DNA of 64,000 nucleotides, from sequence record MN850622.1. One strand, written 5' to 3'. Shown in pieces: positions 2,456 through 59,166 of the stretch. Both the position numbers and the translations under genes were made by a program. The notes below the pieces were generated by a model. That model was not told the origin of the DNA. It searched no databases and saw only the letters and a program-made list of their open reading frames with translations. Numbering within the stretch: the first letter of the stretch is position 1; each line of letters starts with the position of its first letter. The DNA is from Escherichia phage mobillu.

Positions 2456-2691
2456 TTTCTAGAAAAACTTTTAACCACCAACTTAATGAAGAGATTTTGA
2501 CTATGAAAATTAACAGCAACGAACAAATTCTTAAAAAGGCCCTTATGGGCCTGTTTGAAACTAAAGCGGCTAAAGTGATTAAAGGACCTGTTCAATTGGA
2601 ATACTACGCTGATGCATTTCTTCATAGTGTTCTTGGAAGTATCGATGCTGAAGCTTTACGTTATATCAACATTGTCAAGAAATTCAAATAA
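2452..2691 (+). CDS. hypothetical protein
   Basis: ATGA start/stop overlap with upstream gene; 79 aa; no recognisable motif. Confidence 0.45.
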   Translation: MISRKTFNHQLNEEILTMKINSNEQILKKALMGLFETKAAKVIKGPVQLEYYADAFLHSVLGSIDAEALRYINIVKKFK

Positions 2692-2714
2692 GCTTTACGA
2701 ATTGAGTATATAAT
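2692..2714 (+). promoter_or_regulatory. putative middle promoter for gene 42 (MotA box GCTTTA + TATAAT)
   Basis: aGCTTTAcgaattgagtaTATAAT, box-to--10 gap 11 nt. Confidence 0.35.
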
Positions 2715-2733
2715 AAATTGTATTGAGGTAAAC

Positions 2734-3450
2734 ATGGGAAAACATAACACAATGAAATATATCAAAGCCGCAGATTTTCAAACCGCATTTAAAGCAGTCA
2801 ATCGTGAAATTTTAGAAAACCCGGAATTCGTAACTGATTCTCGTATTGGACGTTGTAATGAAATTGGGTCTATGACAGTAGTTGTTGACACTCCATCATC
2901 ATTCAAAATGACCGACCCACGTATTAACCGCATCTCTTATGAATACGCCGAAGATTTCTGGAAGTTTATGATTTCTGGTGGTACCAACGCAGAAGAAGCG
3001 TTTAAGGCATATCCTAATGTCGCTAAATTTATTTCTAAACCAAAATCAGATGTTTTGCCGGCGAACTTCAACACTTTCTACGGTCCTCGCATTGCGGCCC
3101 AATTACCAGCTCTTCTAAAAGAACTTAAAGAGAAGCCTAACTCCCGAAGAGTTGTGTTCCAAATTCTAGAAAGTTCTGATCAGGCTTTGCTTGATTCAGA
3201 CGAAACGCTTGAATATCCATGTACTGACTCAGTGACTTATTATATTCGTGATGGTAAGCTTTATACCCACTGTCATATGCGTTCTCAGAACTGTGCTGTT
3301 GTTATGCAGTTGGATTTTTATCTCCAAGGAAAATTACTTCATTATATCGCTAACGAATGTGGTGTAGAAGTTGGTGATTATACTCATACCATGGTAAGTG
3401 CCCATGTGTTTGAACGTGATTTTGATTATGTTAAAGGATTCCTTGACTAA
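2734..3450 (+). CDS. 42: dCMP hydroxymethylase (thymidylate-synthase superfamily), gene 42 homolog
   Basis: GAGGT RBS; SRR and YPCTD catalytic-Cys motif, MRSQN motif, Asp at position +31 from catalytic Cys (equivalent to T4 gp42 Asp179 / TS Asn177); syntenic with T4 gene 42 next to uvsX. Confidence 0.75.
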   Translation: MGKHNTMKYIKAADFQTAFKAVNREILENPEFVTDSRIGRCNEIGSMTVVVDTPSSFKMTDPRINRISYEYAEDFWKFMISGGTNAEEAFKAYPNVAKFISKPKSDVLPANFNTFYGPRIAAQLPALLKELKEKPNSRRVVFQILESSDQALLDSDETLEYPCTDSVTYYIRDGKLYTHCHMRSQNCAVVMQLDFYLQGKLLHYIANECGVEVGDYTHTMVSAHVFERDFDYVKGFLD

Positions 3451-4349
3451 TGGCTATTTTCCGCGTACCAATCTTGAGTATGCGGTCTTATGAAACTGGA
3501 CAGTATGCTATCCTTAAGGATGGCAACTTCCAACTTCATTTGCACCGTGCTAATCCAGGTGATGTGATTACATATCCACGTAATGCATCTGATATTAAAG
3601 AATGCGAACGTCTTTTCCCAGAATTTAAGTTTGTTCCATTATGGTATAAAGATAACGCGTATAACACTCGTAAATATTTCTGGTCTGAAAATGAATTTGT
3701 GGTTGATTCATTAATTGCTTATTATGATTGTGATTTTCTAATCACAGATATCACCGGATATGACGGTGCTTTTGATGTAGAATTCAATTTCAATATCACT
3801 GCAGACCCTAATAAACCACGTTTTTATATTGACGAATTCTTAAAAACCGACATGTTGTCGGTTAATCGTTCACTTCAAACTACTGTGTTGAACGAACGTC
3901 AAAAAGAAGTGCTGGTTAACGCAGGTGCAGATGGTAATAAGATTATCGTAACGCAGAAAGTTATACGTCCTTCCATCATGCAGCGTCTTGTAGGTGATTT
4001 GGCTCCTATTCATCTAGATGGTATTTTTCATCCATTTCGAATTAGCGACCCGTGCTATCGTTTTGAACAAGTGGTTGAATGTGCAATTCAATTAGGCCAA
4101 CCGCTTTATATAACCGATCCAAATAATAGCTTCGACAGAAATAAGTATCCTGAAGAAGCGCTGATTCGAATTTTTAAACCAACTAAAACTGAGTACTATC
4201 AAATTCTTAAAGGACGTCCGAAAATTCAATATTTCGAAAATCCTGAAGAAGTATTCCATCCAGGTCTTGGTGAGTTCATCTACTTTAATGCTTTAATTTC
4301 TTCGCCGTATAATATACCTAAATATGAAGATGTCGTAATCGAGGAATAA
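3450..4349 (+). CDS. hypothetical protein in beta-gt syntenic slot (possible transferase)
   Basis: TAATG coupling to gene 42; 299 aa; no recognisable similarity to T4 beta-glucosyltransferase by eye. Confidence 0.5.
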   Translation: MAIFRVPILSMRSYETGQYAILKDGNFQLHLHRANPGDVITYPRNASDIKECERLFPEFKFVPLWYKDNAYNTRKYFWSENEFVVDSLIAYYDCDFLITDITGYDGAFDVEFNFNITADPNKPRFYIDEFLKTDMLSVNRSLQTTVLNERQKEVLVNAGADGNKIIVTQKVIRPSIMQRLVGDLAPIHLDGIFHPFRISDPCYRFEQVVECAIQLGQPLYITDPNNSFDRNKYPEEALIRIFKPTKTEYYQILKGRPKIQYFENPEEVFHPGLGEFIYFNALISSPYNIPKYEDVVIEE

Positions 4350-17643: not shown

Positions 17644-17955
17644 ATGGTTTATGTATATGCAATAGTTTATCGAGATATGGAAGGATTTACCGTCCCGGTT
17701 CCACTTGATGAGCATCGTCCTGCAGTATTTTTTAGAAAGGATATTGCAGATAAAGTTTTCGATACTTTGAAAACACAGTATAAAACAGATTTAAAAATGG
17801 GAGTTCTAAGAATGGTCGAAACTCCGCGTAAGTTCTGGTTTAATAAGCTTGAAATGAAACACGTTAAACTAGATGCGGAGACGCAAAGATTGTATCAACG
17901 AATCCTGGACACAGGCCGTATTGTTAGTATTCCAATTGCAGGGACTTTACGATGA
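17644..17955 (+). CDS. hypothetical protein (dda.1 position)
   Basis: 103 aa, overlaps dda start. Confidence 0.5.
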   Translation: MVYVYAIVYRDMEGFTVPVPLDEHRPAVFFRKDIADKVFDTLKTQYKTDLKMGVLRMVETPRKFWFNKLEMKHVKLDAETQRLYQRILDTGRIVSIPIAGTLR

Positions 17956-19265
17956 CATTTGATGATTTGACTGAAGGCCAGAAAAACGCCTTCAACGTTG
18001 TTATGGAAGCTATTAAAGAAAAGAAACATCACGTAACTATTAATGGGCCTGCTGGTACAGGTAAAACAACCCTTACTAGATTTATTGTTGAAGCTCTTAT
18101 TTCTTCAGGAGAATCAGGTATTATTTTAGCAGCCCCTACACATGCTGCTAAAAAGGTTCTAAGCAAACTTGCGGGTCAAGAAGCATCGACTATTCATAGC
18201 ATTCTTAAAATCAACCCAACTACATACGAAGAAAACGTATTGTTTGAACAGAAAAAGGTTCCCGACTTAGCCTTGTGCCGTGTACTGTTATTTGATGAAG
18301 CGTCAATGTGTGACCGTTCTCTGTTTAAAATAATGTTAGCTAGTATCCCTAAATGGTGTACAGTAATTGGAATTGGTGACCGATGCCAGATTCGTCCAGT
18401 AGACCCAGGTGAATCAACTGCGTATCTAAGTCCTTTCTTCACTCACAAAGACTTTGTGCAATGCAACCTTACAGAAGTTAAACGTAGCAATGCACCAATT
18501 ATTGATGTTGCGACTGATATTCGTAATGGCAAATGGATTTACGATAAAGTAGTTGATGGACACGGTGTTCATGGATATACAGACCTTAAATCGTATATGA
18601 TGAACTATTTTAACGTTGTTAAAACTCCTGAAGACCTTTTCGAAAATCGAATGATGGCATTCACAAATAAGTCGGTGGACAAGTTAAATTCAATTATTCG
18701 CCGAAAACTTCTTGAAACAGAAAAACCATTTATTAAAGACGAAGTCATTGTTCTACAAGAGCCATTTACTAAGACATATAAGCTAGATGGTAAAAATATG
18801 ACCGAAATGCTTTTCAATAACGGGCAATTCGTTCGTATTCGAGATGCTGTAGAAACGTCTACATTCGTTAAAGCACGTGGTGTTTCAGGCGAATATATGA
18901 TACGATACTGGAATCTTACAGTAGAAACATATGGGGATGATGAAGAATACATCCGCGAAGATATAAAGGTTATTTCTTCTGAAGAAGAGCTTTATAAATT
19001 CAATTTGTTTTTGGCTAAGACCGCAGAAACATACAAATTTTGGAATAAAGGTGGTAAAGCCCCATGGAGCGAATTCTGGGATGCTAAACGCATGTTCACT
19101 AAGGTGAAGGCACTACCTGTATCAACCTTCCATAAGGCCCAGGGTATATCTGTTGACACGGCCTTTGTTTATACACCGTGTATCCATTATGCCGATTCAG
19201 AATTAGCCAAACAATTACTATATGTCGGCACGACTCGTGGTCGTTTTGACGTCCATTTTATTTGA
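17952..19265 (+). CDS. dda: Dda SF1B DNA helicase
   Basis: 437 aa; MTFDDLTEGQKNAFN...INGPAGTGKTT near-identical to T4 Dda. Confidence 0.95.
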   Translation: MTFDDLTEGQKNAFNVVMEAIKEKKHHVTINGPAGTGKTTLTRFIVEALISSGESGIILAAPTHAAKKVLSKLAGQEASTIHSILKINPTTYEENVLFEQKKVPDLALCRVLLFDEASMCDRSLFKIMLASIPKWCTVIGIGDRCQIRPVDPGESTAYLSPFFTHKDFVQCNLTEVKRSNAPIIDVATDIRNGKWIYDKVVDGHGVHGYTDLKSYMMNYFNVVKTPEDLFENRMMAFTNKSVDKLNSIIRRKLLETEKPFIKDEVIVLQEPFTKTYKLDGKNMTEMLFNNGQFVRIRDAVETSTFVKARGVSGEYMIRYWNLTVETYGDDEEYIREDIKVISSEEELYKFNLFLAKTAETYKFWNKGGKAPWSEFWDAKRMFTKVKALPVSTFHKAQGISVDTAFVYTPCIHYADSELAKQLLYVGTTRGRFDVHFI

Positions 19266-19274
19266 GAGAAAATT

Positions 19275-19952
19275 ATGAGCACTGATGTTATTATAGATTT
19301 TGAAACATTCGGCAATACATCAAAAGCGGCTGTTATTGACCTTGCGGTTATTGCATATAATTCCGACCCTGAAGTTGTTGAATCATTTGAAGAACTTGTT
19401 CAACGAGGTAAGCGAATTAAATTTAATTTAGCTTCTCAGAAAGGGAAGCGAGTTTTCGCTAAATCCACTATGAAATGGTGGAAAGAGCAATCGGCTGAAG
19501 CACGTAAAAACTTGGCCCCGTCTGAAGACGATGTCACTACGCTTGAAGGCATTAAAATCTTTTTAGATTATTGTCGAGCTAATAAAGTTGACCAATGGAA
19601 ATCACAGATGTGGTGCCGTGGTATGAGCTTTGACTTCCCGATCTTGGTCGATTTGATTCGTGACCTCTATCGTGATGAAGGTGTTCTTGAACCAGATATT
19701 GATACTGATAAATTAGAACCGGTTAAATTCTGGGCTCAACGTGATATTCGTACGGCAATCGAAGCTTACTCGTTGACACGAGGATTAAGTATGTGTCCAT
19801 TACCGATGGGTACGCTAAAAGGATTCGTTGCCCATGATAGTATTCATGATTGTGCTAAAGATATTTTGATGTTAAAATATGCTCAGCGTTATGCGCTTGG
19901 CCTTGAAGATGTCCCTGAGAATCCTGACCCATTAAGTGTAAAACAGCGATAA
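19275..19952 (+). CDS. dexA: DexA exonuclease A
   Basis: 225 aa; IIDFETFG, WCRGMSFDFPILVDLIRD, HDSIHDCAKDI match T4 DexA. Confidence 0.9.
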   Translation: MSTDVIIDFETFGNTSKAAVIDLAVIAYNSDPEVVESFEELVQRGKRIKFNLASQKGKRVFAKSTMKWWKEQSAEARKNLAPSEDDVTTLEGIKIFLDYCRANKVDQWKSQMWCRGMSFDFPILVDLIRDLYRDEGVLEPDIDTDKLEPVKFWAQRDIRTAIEAYSLTRGLSMCPLPMGTLKGFVAHDSIHDCAKDILMLKYAQRYALGLEDVPENPDPLSVKQR

Positions 19953-19957
19953 AACCG

Positions 19958-19987
19958 GTTTACAACCAAGGATGGTTGGAGTATAAT
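19958..19987 (+). promoter_or_regulatory. T4-type early promoter
   Basis: GTTTAC + 18 + TATAAT; ccaagg...ccttgg-like repeat in spacer. Confidence 0.6.
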
Positions 19988-20018
19988 CTTTCTATCTTAA
20001 CCAAACAGGAAAAACATT

Positions 20019-20513
20019 ATGAATATCAATACTACGGCTACTTACATCCTGAAAGACGAAAAACAAATCAACTGGTACGGTGCTTCAGTGCGAGCTTATG
20101 AAAAGTTTTGTGAAATTTTAGGTGCCACTCAAGGTAATAGTTTCACTATTGTTAACTTCATCAAACAAGCTGAAGGCCCTTGGTTATTCTTAGAAATTAA
20201 AAATTCATACGGTACAATTTCTACTGCCGCCCTTCCAAGCACCGACTTTGAACTGTTGATTGAAGAAGTAGAACCTGTTAAAGACATCTGTATTGATATG
20301 GATATCGCTTGTATGTACGGTACTCTGATTAAGCCTATTGAGCCTACTGATTTGTTGTGTAAATATGTTTCAATTCGACGACCGTTCGCTGGTCCAGTAA
20401 ATGGCTGGGTGTCTGACCAGTGGATTGAAGAAGGTGTTGAACTTCTGAACGTTGTTCATGCAGGTGATTTTAGTGTAGTTCCACGTAGTGCTGTGGTTAA
20501 TATCCTTAATTAA
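20019..20513 (+). CDS. hypothetical protein, paralog family member 1
   Basis: 164 aa; C-terminal GWVSDQWIEEGVELLNVVHAGDFSVVP shared with two downstream paralogs. Confidence 0.55.
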   Translation: MNINTTATYILKDEKQINWYGASVRAYEKFCEILGATQGNSFTIVNFIKQAEGPWLFLEIKNSYGTISTAALPSTDFELLIEEVEPVKDICIDMDIACMYGTLIKPIEPTDLLCKYVSIRRPFAGPVNGWVSDQWIEEGVELLNVVHAGDFSVVPRSAVVNILN

Positions 20514-20515
20514 TG

Positions 20516-20545
20516 TTGTACATCCAAGGATGGATGGAGTATAGT
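20516..20545 (+). promoter_or_regulatory. T4-type early promoter (variant -35 TTGTAC)
   Basis: TTGTAC + 18 + TATAGT; near-duplicate of 19958 cassette. Confidence 0.45.
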
Positions 20546-20575
20546 GAATTCAATTTAAACAAAGAGAGAGAAATT

Positions 20576-21031
20576 ATGATTGCTATTGGTGAAATTAAGC
20601 GTGTATCGTCTGCATCTCGTTCTAAAGCTGCAGGTCGTCTAGTTGAAGTGGTAGGACTTCGTACTAATGGTACTGGTCGTGTTAAAGAAGTTAAAGTTCG
20701 AATCATTCCTAGTTCTGGAAAAACTGAAACTCAGTACGCTTACGTAAGTCCTAAATTTTTGGAAACTCATGTGAGCGCTCATTTTGCTTCTACTGAACCT
20801 AATGCACAGTTCAAATGGGCCCTTTGCAAAGGTGTTGAATTCCAGACTGATAAAGAATTTGACTTCATCGATGAATATGGTTATCCAAGCAAAACTGATA
20901 CTATGTGTGGCTTCATTAGTGACCAATGGGTTGAAGATGGTGAAAAGTTATACAATATCGTATTCTTAGGTGACTTCCGAGTTGTTAAAGAATCTGAAAT
21001 CACTCGCTATGTGTCTCCTCGTAAAGCTTAA
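20576..21031 (+). CDS. hypothetical protein, paralog family member 2
   Basis: 151 aa from internal ATG (track start lies in promoter); SRSKAAGRLVEV and GFISDQWVEDGEKLYNIVFLGDF motifs. Confidence 0.55.
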   Translation: MIAIGEIKRVSSASRSKAAGRLVEVVGLRTNGTGRVKEVKVRIIPSSGKTETQYAYVSPKFLETHVSAHFASTEPNAQFKWALCKGVEFQTDKEFDFIDEYGYPSKTDTMCGFISDQWVEDGEKLYNIVFLGDFRVVKESEITRYVSPRKA

Positions 21032-21040
21032 GGAATTATT

Positions 21041-21460
21041 ATGAATATTGTAAATCTCTCTACAGGTGATTACGTATATGTATCCGTTGCTTCTCGCTCT
21101 AAAGTTGCCGGGAAGTTGGTTGAAGTTCTTTCTGTGAGTGATCCGGTTTTTGGACGTAACGAAGTTAAAGTTCGTGACGCTGATGGTAACATTGGTTATG
21201 TCTCAAGCCAATTCATTGAACCAGAAGAAAAAGCGTTCAAATGGGGACTATGCAGATCAGTTTCTGTTGAAAAAGACCATGAATTCACTATTGCTGCGGC
21301 AACTGATGGAACACCGTGGAAAACTAAGCAAATCGCCGGATTTATTAGCGACCGTTGGGTAGAAGATGGTGTTAAGCTTTATAACATCGTTTTCGCTGGA
21401 CAGTTCATGGTAGTTCCTGAATTCCAAATTAAAAAATATAGCCCAGCTGCTTTTGCATAA
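21041..21460 (+). CDS. hypothetical protein, paralog family member 3
   Basis: 139 aa; SRSKVAGKLVEV and GFISDRWVEDGVKLYNIVFAGQF motifs. Confidence 0.55.
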   Translation: MNIVNLSTGDYVYVSVASRSKVAGKLVEVLSVSDPVFGRNEVKVRDADGNIGYVSSQFIEPEEKAFKWGLCRSVSVEKDHEFTIAAATDGTPWKTKQIAGFISDRWVEDGVKLYNIVFAGQFMVVPEFQIKKYSPAAFA

Positions 21461-21464
21461 AGTT

Positions 21465-21493
21465 GTTTACTTCTCCTCTGGTTTTGATATTAT
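21465..21493 (+). promoter_or_regulatory. T4-type early promoter with 9-bp inverted repeat around -10
   Basis: GTTTAC + 17 + TATTAT; cctctggtt / aaccagagg. Confidence 0.6.
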
Positions 21494-21519
21494 AACCATA
21501 TCAACCAGAGGAGAATAAT

Positions 21520-22044
21520 ATGTTAGTTTACCGCGTAGAACGTAGTTTTTGTACTCAACGTGAATCATTACCAGGAATTGCTATCGAAGACGGTAAAGCC
21601 GTCAGAATTTGGGAAACCTCTTGGAATAAAGAACCTCGCTCGCCGTACGGTTGGTCGGGCACCGACAACTCTGAAGAAACATGGGAGTTCCTTGATAAAC
21701 ACGGAATACTCTCAGGTAACTTCTACCATCACGGCGACAACTATAATGTCCCTAATCGTCCTACAGTAAATGAAGACAAACTCCTTGAACAAAATATCTT
21801 AAGATACCATAGAATTGAGTACACATTTGAATTGAGTGAAGATTGGGCTCAAGGGTTCTATTTTGGATTTGAAAGTGTTGACGCGGTTTATGCATGGTTT
21901 GATGACCAGGTGGATGTTGAACTCTTGAAAGCTAAAGGATACTACATCGCGGTCTATGAAGCACCTGATTTCATCCTCGGAAGTTGTCAATTAATGTTCA
22001 GACGTTCATTGGCAGAACAAGTTGATTTTATTTTGCTAAAATGA
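21520..22044 (+). CDS. hypothetical protein
   Basis: 174 aa ORF after early promoter with GAGGAG RBS. Confidence 0.55.
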   Translation: MLVYRVERSFCTQRESLPGIAIEDGKAVRIWETSWNKEPRSPYGWSGTDNSEETWEFLDKHGILSGNFYHHGDNYNVPNRPTVNEDKLLEQNILRYHRIEYTFELSEDWAQGFYFGFESVDAVYAWFDDQVDVELLKAKGYYIAVYEAPDFILGSCQLMFRRSLAEQVDFILLK

Positions 22045-31450: not shown

Positions 31451-31480
31451 TTGTACAAACTCTTGAGAGCAGAGTATAAT
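31451..31480 (+). promoter_or_regulatory. T4-type early promoter (variant -35) upstream of ndd
   Basis: TTGTAC + 18 + TATAAT inside gagca/tgctc inverted repeat. Confidence 0.5.
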
Positions 31481-31524
31481 GCTCTCATGGATTACAAAAA
31501 CATTAATCAATTGAGGAAATTAGC

Positions 31525-59109: not shown

Positions 59110-59138
59110 TTTACAAACTCTCAGGAGCAGAGTATAAT
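59109..59138 (+). promoter_or_regulatory. T4-type early promoter with inverted repeat
   Basis: GTTTAC + 18 + TATAAT; aggagca / tgctcct. Confidence 0.6.
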
Positions 59139-59166
59139 GCTCCTATGGATAATTGAGGAAATCTAA

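Follow-up and report, generated by a model that had tools for sequence, protein, structure and literature searches.

We propose that the three consecutive genes at this locus are MotB-family early genes encoding MotB.1 (gene 1), MotB (gene 2) and a second, old MotB paralog (gene 3), each predicted to consist of two small beta-barrels joined by a flexible linker; taken as a whole, we consider this explanation likely to be correct. The gene family and its C-terminal paralogy are already known. Patterson-West et al. 2021 (PMC7827196) aligned 102 phage homologues and described a common C-terminal domain and different N-terminal domains in MotB and MotB.1; besides T4, 40 phages were found to carry both motB and motB.1, and RB69 to carry two motB, one motB.1 and one 29-aa peptide. 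The three-paralog observation as made in the preliminary description of this DNA adds nothing to that study. What the present work adds is the predicted SH3/Tudor-like fold and the charge of the shared domain, the probable old origin and mobility of gene 3, the reading of the upstream cassette as a copy of the motB leader, and the frameshift in the T4 reference motB.1, side results that may matter to workers on T4 early genes.

Bases 19900-21600 of the window, by which we mean the whole stretch of 64,000 nucleotides analysed, are 95-98% identical in DNA to RB69, BEU50, vB_Eco_F27 and about 150 other full-length matches, and the window comes from an RB69-like Mosigvirus, a T4-type phage. The three genes lie in the early region between dexA and cef/goF, which is the conserved position of the MotB family (Table 1). 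In the RB69 record they are named motB.1, motB and RB69ORF010c ("similar to motB"), and motB.2 is named as well; motB.1 appears there as two pieces, one of 132 aa and the 29-aa ORF012c. All three proteins score above the gathering cut-off (25 bits) of the Pfam MotB family PF17613, with 31.0 bits for gene 1, 130.5 bits for gene 2 (E 6.9e-38) and 76.3 bits for gene 3 (E 3.1e-21). Among the PHROGs, gene 1 was assigned to phrog_2333 (E 1.6e-80), and genes 2 and 3 to phrog_1671, which is annotated as "MotB-like". Gene 2 is 48% identical to T4 MotB over the full length, and gene 1 matches T4 MotB.1 with 37% identity (E 1e-26) across the N-terminal domain and into the beginning of the C-terminal one. 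The previously given lengths of 164, 151 and 139 aa match the open reading frames, with the 151-aa gene 2 starting at ATG 20576. A 172-aa form of gene 2 from the in-frame ATG 20513 was rejected: it would run through the promoter, a stop codon closes the extension in RB69, and the PF17613 alignment begins at the first residue of the 151-aa protein.

Table 1 Features of the motB locus and its surroundings in the window.
Feature	Positions	Strand	Details
dda	17952-19265	+	
dexA	19275-19952	+	
P1, early promoter and leader of motB.1	19957-20018	+	-35 TTTACA 19959-19964; -10 TATAAT 19982-19987; spacer 17
Gene 1, MotB.1, 164 aa	20019-20513	+	PHROG 2333, Pfam PF17613, RB69 motB.1, T4 MotB.1 similarity
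Shared C-terminal domain of gene 1	20340-20510	+	residues 108-164, pI 4.7
P2, motB promoter and leader	20515-20575	+	-35 TGTACA 20517-20522; -10 TATAGT 20540-20545; spacer 17
Gene 2, MotB orthologue, 151 aa	20576-21031	+	Pfam PF17613, T4 MotB similarity
Gene 3, second MotB copy (RB69ORF010c type), 139 aa	21041-21460	+	Pfam PF17613, RB69 annotation
P3, motB.2 promoter	21466-21519	+	TTTACT-16-TATTAT, within 13-bp perfect inverted repeat 21471-21483 / 21503-21515
motB.2	21520-22044	+	followed by cef and goF

The shared C-terminal domain and the three proteins

The C-terminal block that had been noticed in all three genes reads GWVSDQWIEEGVELLNVVHAGDFSVV, GFISDQWVEDGEKLYNIVFLGDFRVV and GFISDRWVEDGVKLYNIVFAGQFMVV in genes 1, 2 and 3, and a six-frame regular-expression scan found only these three copies in the whole window. 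In BLASTP comparisons, gene 1 matched gene 2 (E 6e-10) and gene 3 (E 3e-10) in the C-terminal part only, and genes 2 and 3 aligned over their full length with 44% identity over 145 aa (E 8e-33). PF17613 likewise covers only residues 84-159 of gene 1, at model positions 78-153, which correspond to the C-terminal domain. The pairwise and profile alignment proposed as a check has been run, and the shared block is significant. The N-terminal block described as common to two of the three is present in genes 2 and 3 (SRSKAAGRLVEV and SRSKVAGKLVEV). These two genes have the full two-domain MotB layout, in which a KOW-like N-terminal domain with the SRSKAAG motif precedes the C-terminal domain; gene 1 lacks this layout, its N-terminal domain falling in PHROG 2333. 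What genes 1 and 2 have in common is limited to about 40-57 aa, and their N-terminal domains are unrelated. By these alignments genes 1-3 are true paralogs; their paralogy is probably old. The shortness of the block shared by genes 1 and 2 (about 36-57 aa) would favour a motif that arose by chance or convergence without homology, but this reading is already refuted by the alignments and has a vanishingly small probability: the weaker pairwise E-values are still 3e-10 and 6e-10, the Pfam gathering score is exceeded by all three proteins, the same five-strand barrel is predicted in the models of genes 1 and 2, and the architectures found in phages F48 and CIP9 bridge the MotB and MotB.1 types.

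AlphaFold2 models built with family alignments (mean pLDDT 78.6 for gene 1 and 85.8 for gene 2) contain two beta domains each, with a low-confidence linker between them. In gene 1, a five-strand beta domain with two helices (about residues 8-83) is followed by the linker (86-106) and the C-terminal barrel (116-163; strands 116-121, 124-137, 140-147, 150-155 and 159-163). In gene 2, a KOW/SH3-like N-terminal domain (1-60) and a linker precede the C-terminal barrel (79-151), into which a long additional hairpin (86-98 and 104-120) is inserted. The five-strand C-terminal barrel is modelled with pLDDT >90 in both proteins, and the shared domain of about 57-74 aa is predicted with high confidence to be SH3/Tudor-like and net acidic in genes 1 and 2. 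The N-terminal barrels are predicted to differ, being basic and KOW-like in MotB, near-neutral and KOW-like in gene 3, and a distinct acidic beta-domain in MotB.1.

These differences are reflected in the calculated isoelectric points, which are 10.7 for the KOW domain of gene 2, 4.7 for the C-terminal domain of genes 1 and 2, and, for whole proteins, 4.5 in MotB.1, 5.8 in gene 3 and 9.2 in T4 MotB. Since the KOW domain is basic and the C-terminal domain acidic, the former is the putative DNA-binding part of MotB, and the invariant C-terminal surface (G..D.W.E.G..L.N.V) is a putative protein contact common to the three paralogs, as judged from charge and conservation. In the 2021 paper, HHpred had led to an OB-fold assignment for this domain, and either domain was regarded as a possible DNA binder (PMC7827196), whereas an acidic Tudor/SH3-like domain predicts protein binding rather than DNA binding. 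T4 MotB is a phage nucleoid-associated, H-NS-modulating DNA-binding protein, which binds host and modified T4 DNA without sequence specificity, copurifies with H-NS/StpA and up-regulates 75 host genes, about one third of them in the H-NS regulon; its overexpression is toxic, and it doubles the burst size (PMC6070864, PMC7827196). Judged by charge, DNA binding, H-NS copurification and toxicity are plausible for gene 2 and doubtful for genes 1 and 3. Gene 3 and MotB.1 lack the basic character of T4 MotB and may not bind DNA at all.

The T4 reference MotB.1 is truncated at 119 aa: a 1-base insertion in the reference sequence removes the last 29 or so residues of its C-terminal domain, and this frameshift is absent from a second T4 assembly. 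MotB.1 reads as frameshifted in the reference sequences of both T4 and RB69; an intact T4-type MotB.1 of 143 aa is present on 256 contigs, and the 164-aa protein is intact in the four other Mosigviruses examined. The N-terminal domain of T4 MotB.1 was placed in an LSm-like fold family with GoF and Frd.2, and knocking out motB.1 in T4 gave no phenotype in the laboratory (Kim et al. 2025, PMC12152347). For the sole functional tests of MotB.1, reported in the same study, the gene was synthesised from the T4 reference sequence. As this gene carries the truncating insertion, the negative results may not hold for the natural protein of 143 aa, and the frameshift changes how they should be read.

Promoter cassettes and gene order

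P1, P2 and P3 are intergenic, sigma70-like early promoters of the T4-group type (TTTACW-N17-TAYWAT). The preliminary description had placed near-duplicate cassettes before the first two genes, and this part of it stands: P1 and P2 form a direct repeat of 48 nt with 75% identity, and their common 20-nt core, CCAAGGATGG[T/A]TGGAGTATA, occurs at only these two sites in the window (0 expected in 100 shuffles). Each has a hairpin with a 6-bp stem in the promoter spacer, CAACCA-AGGA-TGGTTG at 19963-19978 in P1, which also has the Shine-Dalgarno sequence AGGA, and CATCCA-AGGA-TGGATG at 20521-20536 in P2. The predicted stabilities, -5.5 and -5.3 kcal/mol, are barely above those of shuffled sequence (z -1.7). 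The two hairpins differ by one compensatory pair, an A/T swap in which the single difference within the core is balanced by a second change just upstream of it, so that the stem is preserved; its chance probability is about 0.04 by a rough estimate that is no formal test, and the swap is suggestive only. The inverted repeat of P3 is far more stable (deltaG -14.6 kcal/mol, z -7.2) and also spans the motB.2 Shine-Dalgarno sequence. Its counterpart is annotated as a terminator in phage SA79RD, and the motB.1-motB-gene 3 unit ends downstream at P3.

The motB leader of T4, VR5 and VR7 has its orthologue in the 3' half of P2 (TGGAGTATA..AACAAAGAGAGA..ATTATG). P1 has the same elements down to the start codon, indicating that P1 is a paralogous copy of the motB leader, and it was seen only in the Mosigvirus arrangement, where motB.2 no longer precedes motB.1. 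Cassette pairs with 70-76% identity are common in the window before distant and unrelated genes, for example at 31452/59110 and 8421/21466.

Between dexA and cef, the order of genes and promoter cassettes ([P]) varies among relatives. The window and other Mosigviruses have [P1] motB.1, [P2] motB, gene 3, [P3] motB.2, and T4 (Tequatrovirus) and VR5 (Dhakavirus) have [P] motB.2, motB.1, [P] motB. The order in VR7 (Gaprivervirus) is [P] ORF013c, motB.1 (251 aa), [P] motB. RB7 (Tequatrovirus) has motB.2, motB.1, motB and gene 3; KFS-EC3 (Tequatrovirus) and F13076, whose genus is unassigned in its record, have a 30-aa remnant followed by motB and gene 3. A single motB is found in F48 (Marfavirus) after a small ORF, and in CIP9 (Kanagawavirus) after a motB.2-like gene. 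In T4, VR5 and VR7, motB.1 adjoins motB and has no promoter of its own, coming after motB.2 or another ORF that it overlaps or from which 10 nt separate it; this indicates that the paralogy predates the Mosigvirus cassette before motB.1.

Modularity is seen in domains as well as in genes. MotB.1-type proteins occur in forms of 143, about 165, about 180 and about 248 aa, in which the N-terminal modules differ or are doubled and the last 57 or so residues are 70-84% identical to gene 1; the linker of gene 1, DMDIACMYGTLIKP, recurs before the N-terminal modules of the longer forms. The single "MotB" of F48 and CIP9 combines a KOW N-terminal domain with a C-terminal domain of the MotB.1 type, which suggests that the short C-terminal domain is probably the older form. 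In Shf125875, a chimeric MotB joins an N-terminal domain like that of T4 to a C-terminal domain of the Mosigvirus kind. When 1.84 billion representative proteins were searched with a profile built from the three C-terminal domains, only 28 clusters were retrieved, 3 of them spurious; the family is narrow. The spurious matches were three long proteins (570, 842 and 2408 aa, with 6-7 matching stretches each) of MucBP, Ig and Calx-beta repeats. A C-terminal-domain match in phage DCP80 (141 kb), at first considered as a relative outside the T4 group, was rejected as a Gaprivervirus record with an ordinary MotB.1 of about 250 aa.

Selection and origin of the three genes

Nei-Gojobori dN/dS ratios were calculated for six Mosigviruses (the window phage and five others), with RB7 added for motB and three Tequatrovirus-type phages added for gene 3. 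They were 0.02 for dda, 0.05 for dexA, 0.07-0.14 for motB.1, 0.17-0.28 for motB, 0.10-0.23 for gene 3 and about 0.11 for motB.2 and goF. Mean dS was 0.38-0.42 for motB and gene 3, three to four times that of neighbouring genes (0.08-0.16). Since the excess divergence of these two genes is mostly synonymous, it points to exchange of diverged alleles, not to accelerated protein evolution. By these ratios genes 1-3 appear to be under purifying selection gene-wide, with which a few positively selected sites would be compatible. The arms-race divergence previously suggested for the family is thus not borne out by the gene-wide ratios. The survey of copy number among related phages, also suggested previously, showed that it does vary, which is compatible with an adaptive accessory role.

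Gene 3 begins 9 nt after gene 2 and has no promoter of its own. About 207 records contain it at 80% identity or more, and none between 60% and 80%. The copies in RB7, KFS-EC3 and F13076 are about 90% identical to that of the window, whereas dexA, cef and goF of these phages are 65-79% identical, indicating transfer between genera. A neighbour-joining tree that lacks bootstrap support places gene 3 outside the MotB orthologues from Mosigvirus, Tequatrovirus, Gaprivervirus and Dhakavirus, which suggests an old or fast-evolving paralog and no recent tandem copy, although fast evolution could mimic an old origin.

A rival explanation built on the preliminary description is a recent tandem duplication through recombination of early-promoter cassettes, followed by rapid divergence in an arms race. 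PeSL cassettes (promoter-early stem-loops) are documented to shuffle modules in T4-type phages (Arbiol et al. 2010, Comeau et al. 2014; PMC2839356, PMC4122927), and the locus is indeed modularly rearranged among related phages in the same manner, gene order differing at cassette-bounded modules. Variation in order and copy number, the near-duplication of P1 and P2 with its core unique in the window and its stem-preserving change, and the greater divergence of motB and gene 3 than of neighbouring genes among Mosigviruses all speak for such a history. On the other hand, no cassette separates genes 2 and 3, the closest pair; motB.1 and motB occur together in genera in which motB.1 has no cassette; and copying of a cassette with its gene does not explain the unrelated N-terminal domains of genes 1 and 2. 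In addition, similar cassette pairs precede unrelated genes, gene 3 lies outside every MotB orthologue in the tree, the dN/dS ratios of 0.07-0.28 do not fit rapid divergence, and the single deletion junction that was mapped (KFS-EC3, F13076) is at a coding microhomology away from the cassettes. Cassette recombination as the origin of the paralogs is therefore largely refuted, and we regard this history as unlikely.

It is also conceivable that gene 3, and possibly MotB.1, are redundant duplicates drifting to loss with no function of their own. The frameshifted reference MotB.1 of T4 and RB69, the deletion of most of motB.1 and motB.2 in KFS-EC3 and F13076, the absence of a laboratory phenotype in T4 motB.1 mutants and the lack of gene 3 in many Tequatroviruses all speak for such drift. 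Against it, each of the nine loci compared has an intact gene 3 of 139 aa, at dN/dS of 0.10-0.23, and its presence in some 207 records comes with spread between genera; the 164-aa MotB.1 is intact in the four other Mosigviruses examined, at dN/dS of about 0.1, and the many intact 143-aa copies and the unframeshifted second T4 assembly likewise argue against decay. We consider drift to loss very improbable. Gene 3 would instead be an old module under purifying selection that moves between genera, which makes it a good candidate for host-dependent phenotypes.

Proposed roles and comparison with known systems

Under the MotB-family explanation, P1 would drive motB.1, and P2 would drive motB together with gene 3, the hairpin and promoter of P3 closing the unit. 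Gene 2 would do the job of T4 MotB, with its basic KOW domain as the part that contacts DNA. The conserved acidic C-terminal barrel may serve as a common protein-protein module, either for self- or hetero-association or for docking on one shared partner, and through it MotB.1 and gene 3 could bring other N-terminal activities to the same place. The locus would change as diverged alleles, domains and gene modules recombine, the cassette before motB.1 being a secondary copy of the motB leader. A more specific and speculative proposal, to which we attach a low probability, is that the barrel is a docking or hetero-oligomerisation module through which all three proteins, MotB, its second copy and MotB.1, gather on a common target such as H-NS/StpA filaments or on one another, bringing DNA-binding KOW and LSm-like, possibly RNA-binding, domains to it; phages would tune this set by swapping N-terminal modules and whole genes between genera.

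Among known systems, T4 MotB (PF17613; PHROG 1671) is the closest to genes 2 and 3, which are 48% and 39% identical to it, occupy the same position between dexA and cef, and share its early-promoter leader, KOW-like N-terminal domain and conserved C-terminal domain. They differ from it in that gene 3 is an extra copy not found in T4, non-basic and outside the orthologue clade, and in that the C-terminal domain is predicted here to be SH3/Tudor-like, in contrast to the earlier OB-fold assignment. Gene 1 resembles T4 MotB.1 (PHROG 2333) in its predicted five-strand N-terminal beta domain and MotB.1-type C-terminal domain. It has an additional linker motif of about 20 aa (DMDIACMYGTLIKP), its own promoter and a place upstream of motB.2 instead of downstream, whereas the T4 reference protein is truncated. 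The cassettes are like PeSLs in being intergenic early promoters with a stem-loop between or across the hexamers, in a hyperplastic region whose flanking genes vary in order and presence; unlike in the PeSL model, the P1 and P2 hairpins are weak, the one deletion junction mapped lies in none of the cassettes, and the origin of the paralogs is not explained by them. The small beta-barrels of Tudor, chromo, PWWP and KOW domains are structural analogues only, with 10-20% sequence identity, a likeness that does not support shared descent or methyl-lysine reading in the MotB family.

MotB domain make-up in other phages

In the Mosigvirus Shf125875, MotB was found to be a chimera that switches within the linker, its N-terminal domain being T4-like (…KLVEVVSIQLKEGVKDEDSEVKVRIIP…) and its C-terminal domain almost identical to that of the window MotB (gene 2). 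The sole MotB of Marfavirus and Kanagawavirus phages joins a KOW N-terminal domain to a short MotB.1-type C-terminal domain, and the short motif of the gene 1 (motB.1) linker is present in CIP9 MotB too. Judging by the F48 and CIP9 proteins, the short C-terminal domain would be the ancestral form, and the hairpin insertion of MotB would be derived. We also found MotB.1-type proteins with one or two differing N-terminal modules. Between these modules the motif [DF]DV/DMD[IV]A[CS]MYGTL[IV]KP recurs, and it resembles a reusable domain linker.

Features of the motB region and its counterparts in the window and in comparison loci
Feature	Sequence	Position or protein	Remark
Chimeric MotB	Shf125875 (L009)	3006-3491
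Single MotB	F48 (L007)	2480-2860
Single MotB	CIP9 (L008)	2507-3001
MotB.1-type proteins		P0013, P0014, P0020	about 248 aa
MotB.1-type proteins		P0017, P0026, P0070	about 180 aa
Gene 3	RB7 (L012), KFS-EC3 (L013), F13076 (L014)	3501-3920
Gene 3	window	21041-21460
89-aa ORF	RB7 (L012)	4027-4296
Remnant of 89-aa ORF	T4 (L003)	about 1481-1560	minus strand
30-aa fusion ORF	KFS-EC3 (L013)	2827-2919
30-aa fusion ORF	F13076 (L014)	2824-2916
Extra G in motB.1	T4, NC_000866.4 (L003)	about 2305-2310	minus strand; cf. locus L015, 787-1218
Extra T residues in motB.1	RB69, AY303349 (L001)	3480-3560
motB.2 promoter (P3) within inverted repeat	window	21466-21519
T4 motB promoter type	window	31452-31500, 59110-59160
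T4 motB promoter type	T4 (L003)	about 2165-2220

Gene 3 and deletion junctions in Tequatrovirus-type phages

Gene 3, the second MotB copy, shows about 90% identity in RB7, KFS-EC3, and F13076, but the adjoining genes reach only 65-79%. In KFS-EC3, the direct repeat GCATAAAGTTTAA lies on both sides of the gene 3 insertion, and because it covers the 3' ends of motB and gene 3, the insertion is suggested to have arisen by recombination via conserved gene ends. Gene 3 is separated from cef by an 89-aa ORF in RB7 and KFS-EC3. The T4 remnant of this ORF retains the leader and the first three codons, together with the last ~17 codons in a different frame; as judged from these sequences, the T4 counterpart of the RB7 ORF is internally deleted. 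KFS-EC3 and F13076 carry a 30-aa ORF (MKIYRVELLNVVHAGDFSVVPRSAVVAILN) in which motB.2 codons 1-7 are fused in frame to the final ~25 codons of motB.1. It originated from a deletion at the microhomology GTGTTGAA, with a junction inside the coding sequence and not at the promoter cassettes.

Reading frame of motB.1 in T4 and RB69

The T4 reference motB.1 has one additional G (GGATTGGAAG versus GGATTGAAG in OZ209023.1, RB7, and the window) and encodes 119 aa, and the second T4 assembly, OZ209023.1, has a 143-aa ORF; intact 143-aa MotB.1 was found in 256 contigs. The motB.1 used by Kim et al. 2025 (product, 13.8 kDa) was synthesized from the T4 reference sequence, and their protein thus lacks the last ~29 aa of the conserved domain. 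Compared with the window and SA79RD, RB69 motB.1 contains two additional T residues, resulting in a 132-aa ORF and a second one of 29 aa, ORF012c; Patterson-West et al. 2021 listed the latter as a 'Category 3 peptide'. The 164-aa motB.1 is intact in the four further Mosigviruses examined, and the extra T residues of RB69 could reflect either an error in sequencing or a mutation acquired in the laboratory.

Promoters and hairpins

At motB, the window does not use the promoter type of T4 motB (AACTCTTGGGACCAGAGTATAATGGTCCC, in which a hairpin spans the -10 element); two copies of this type occur elsewhere in the window, each ahead of other genes, and with 76% identity they form its most similar cassette pair. 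The motB.2 promoter is enclosed by an inverted repeat of two perfectly matching 13-bp arms (deltaG -14.6 kcal/mol, z -7.2), the right one being the motB.2 Shine-Dalgarno sequence. The ribosome site of motB.2 would be masked in read-through transcripts and free in transcripts begun at P3. The P3 stem is conserved in T4 and VR5 despite their different sequences.
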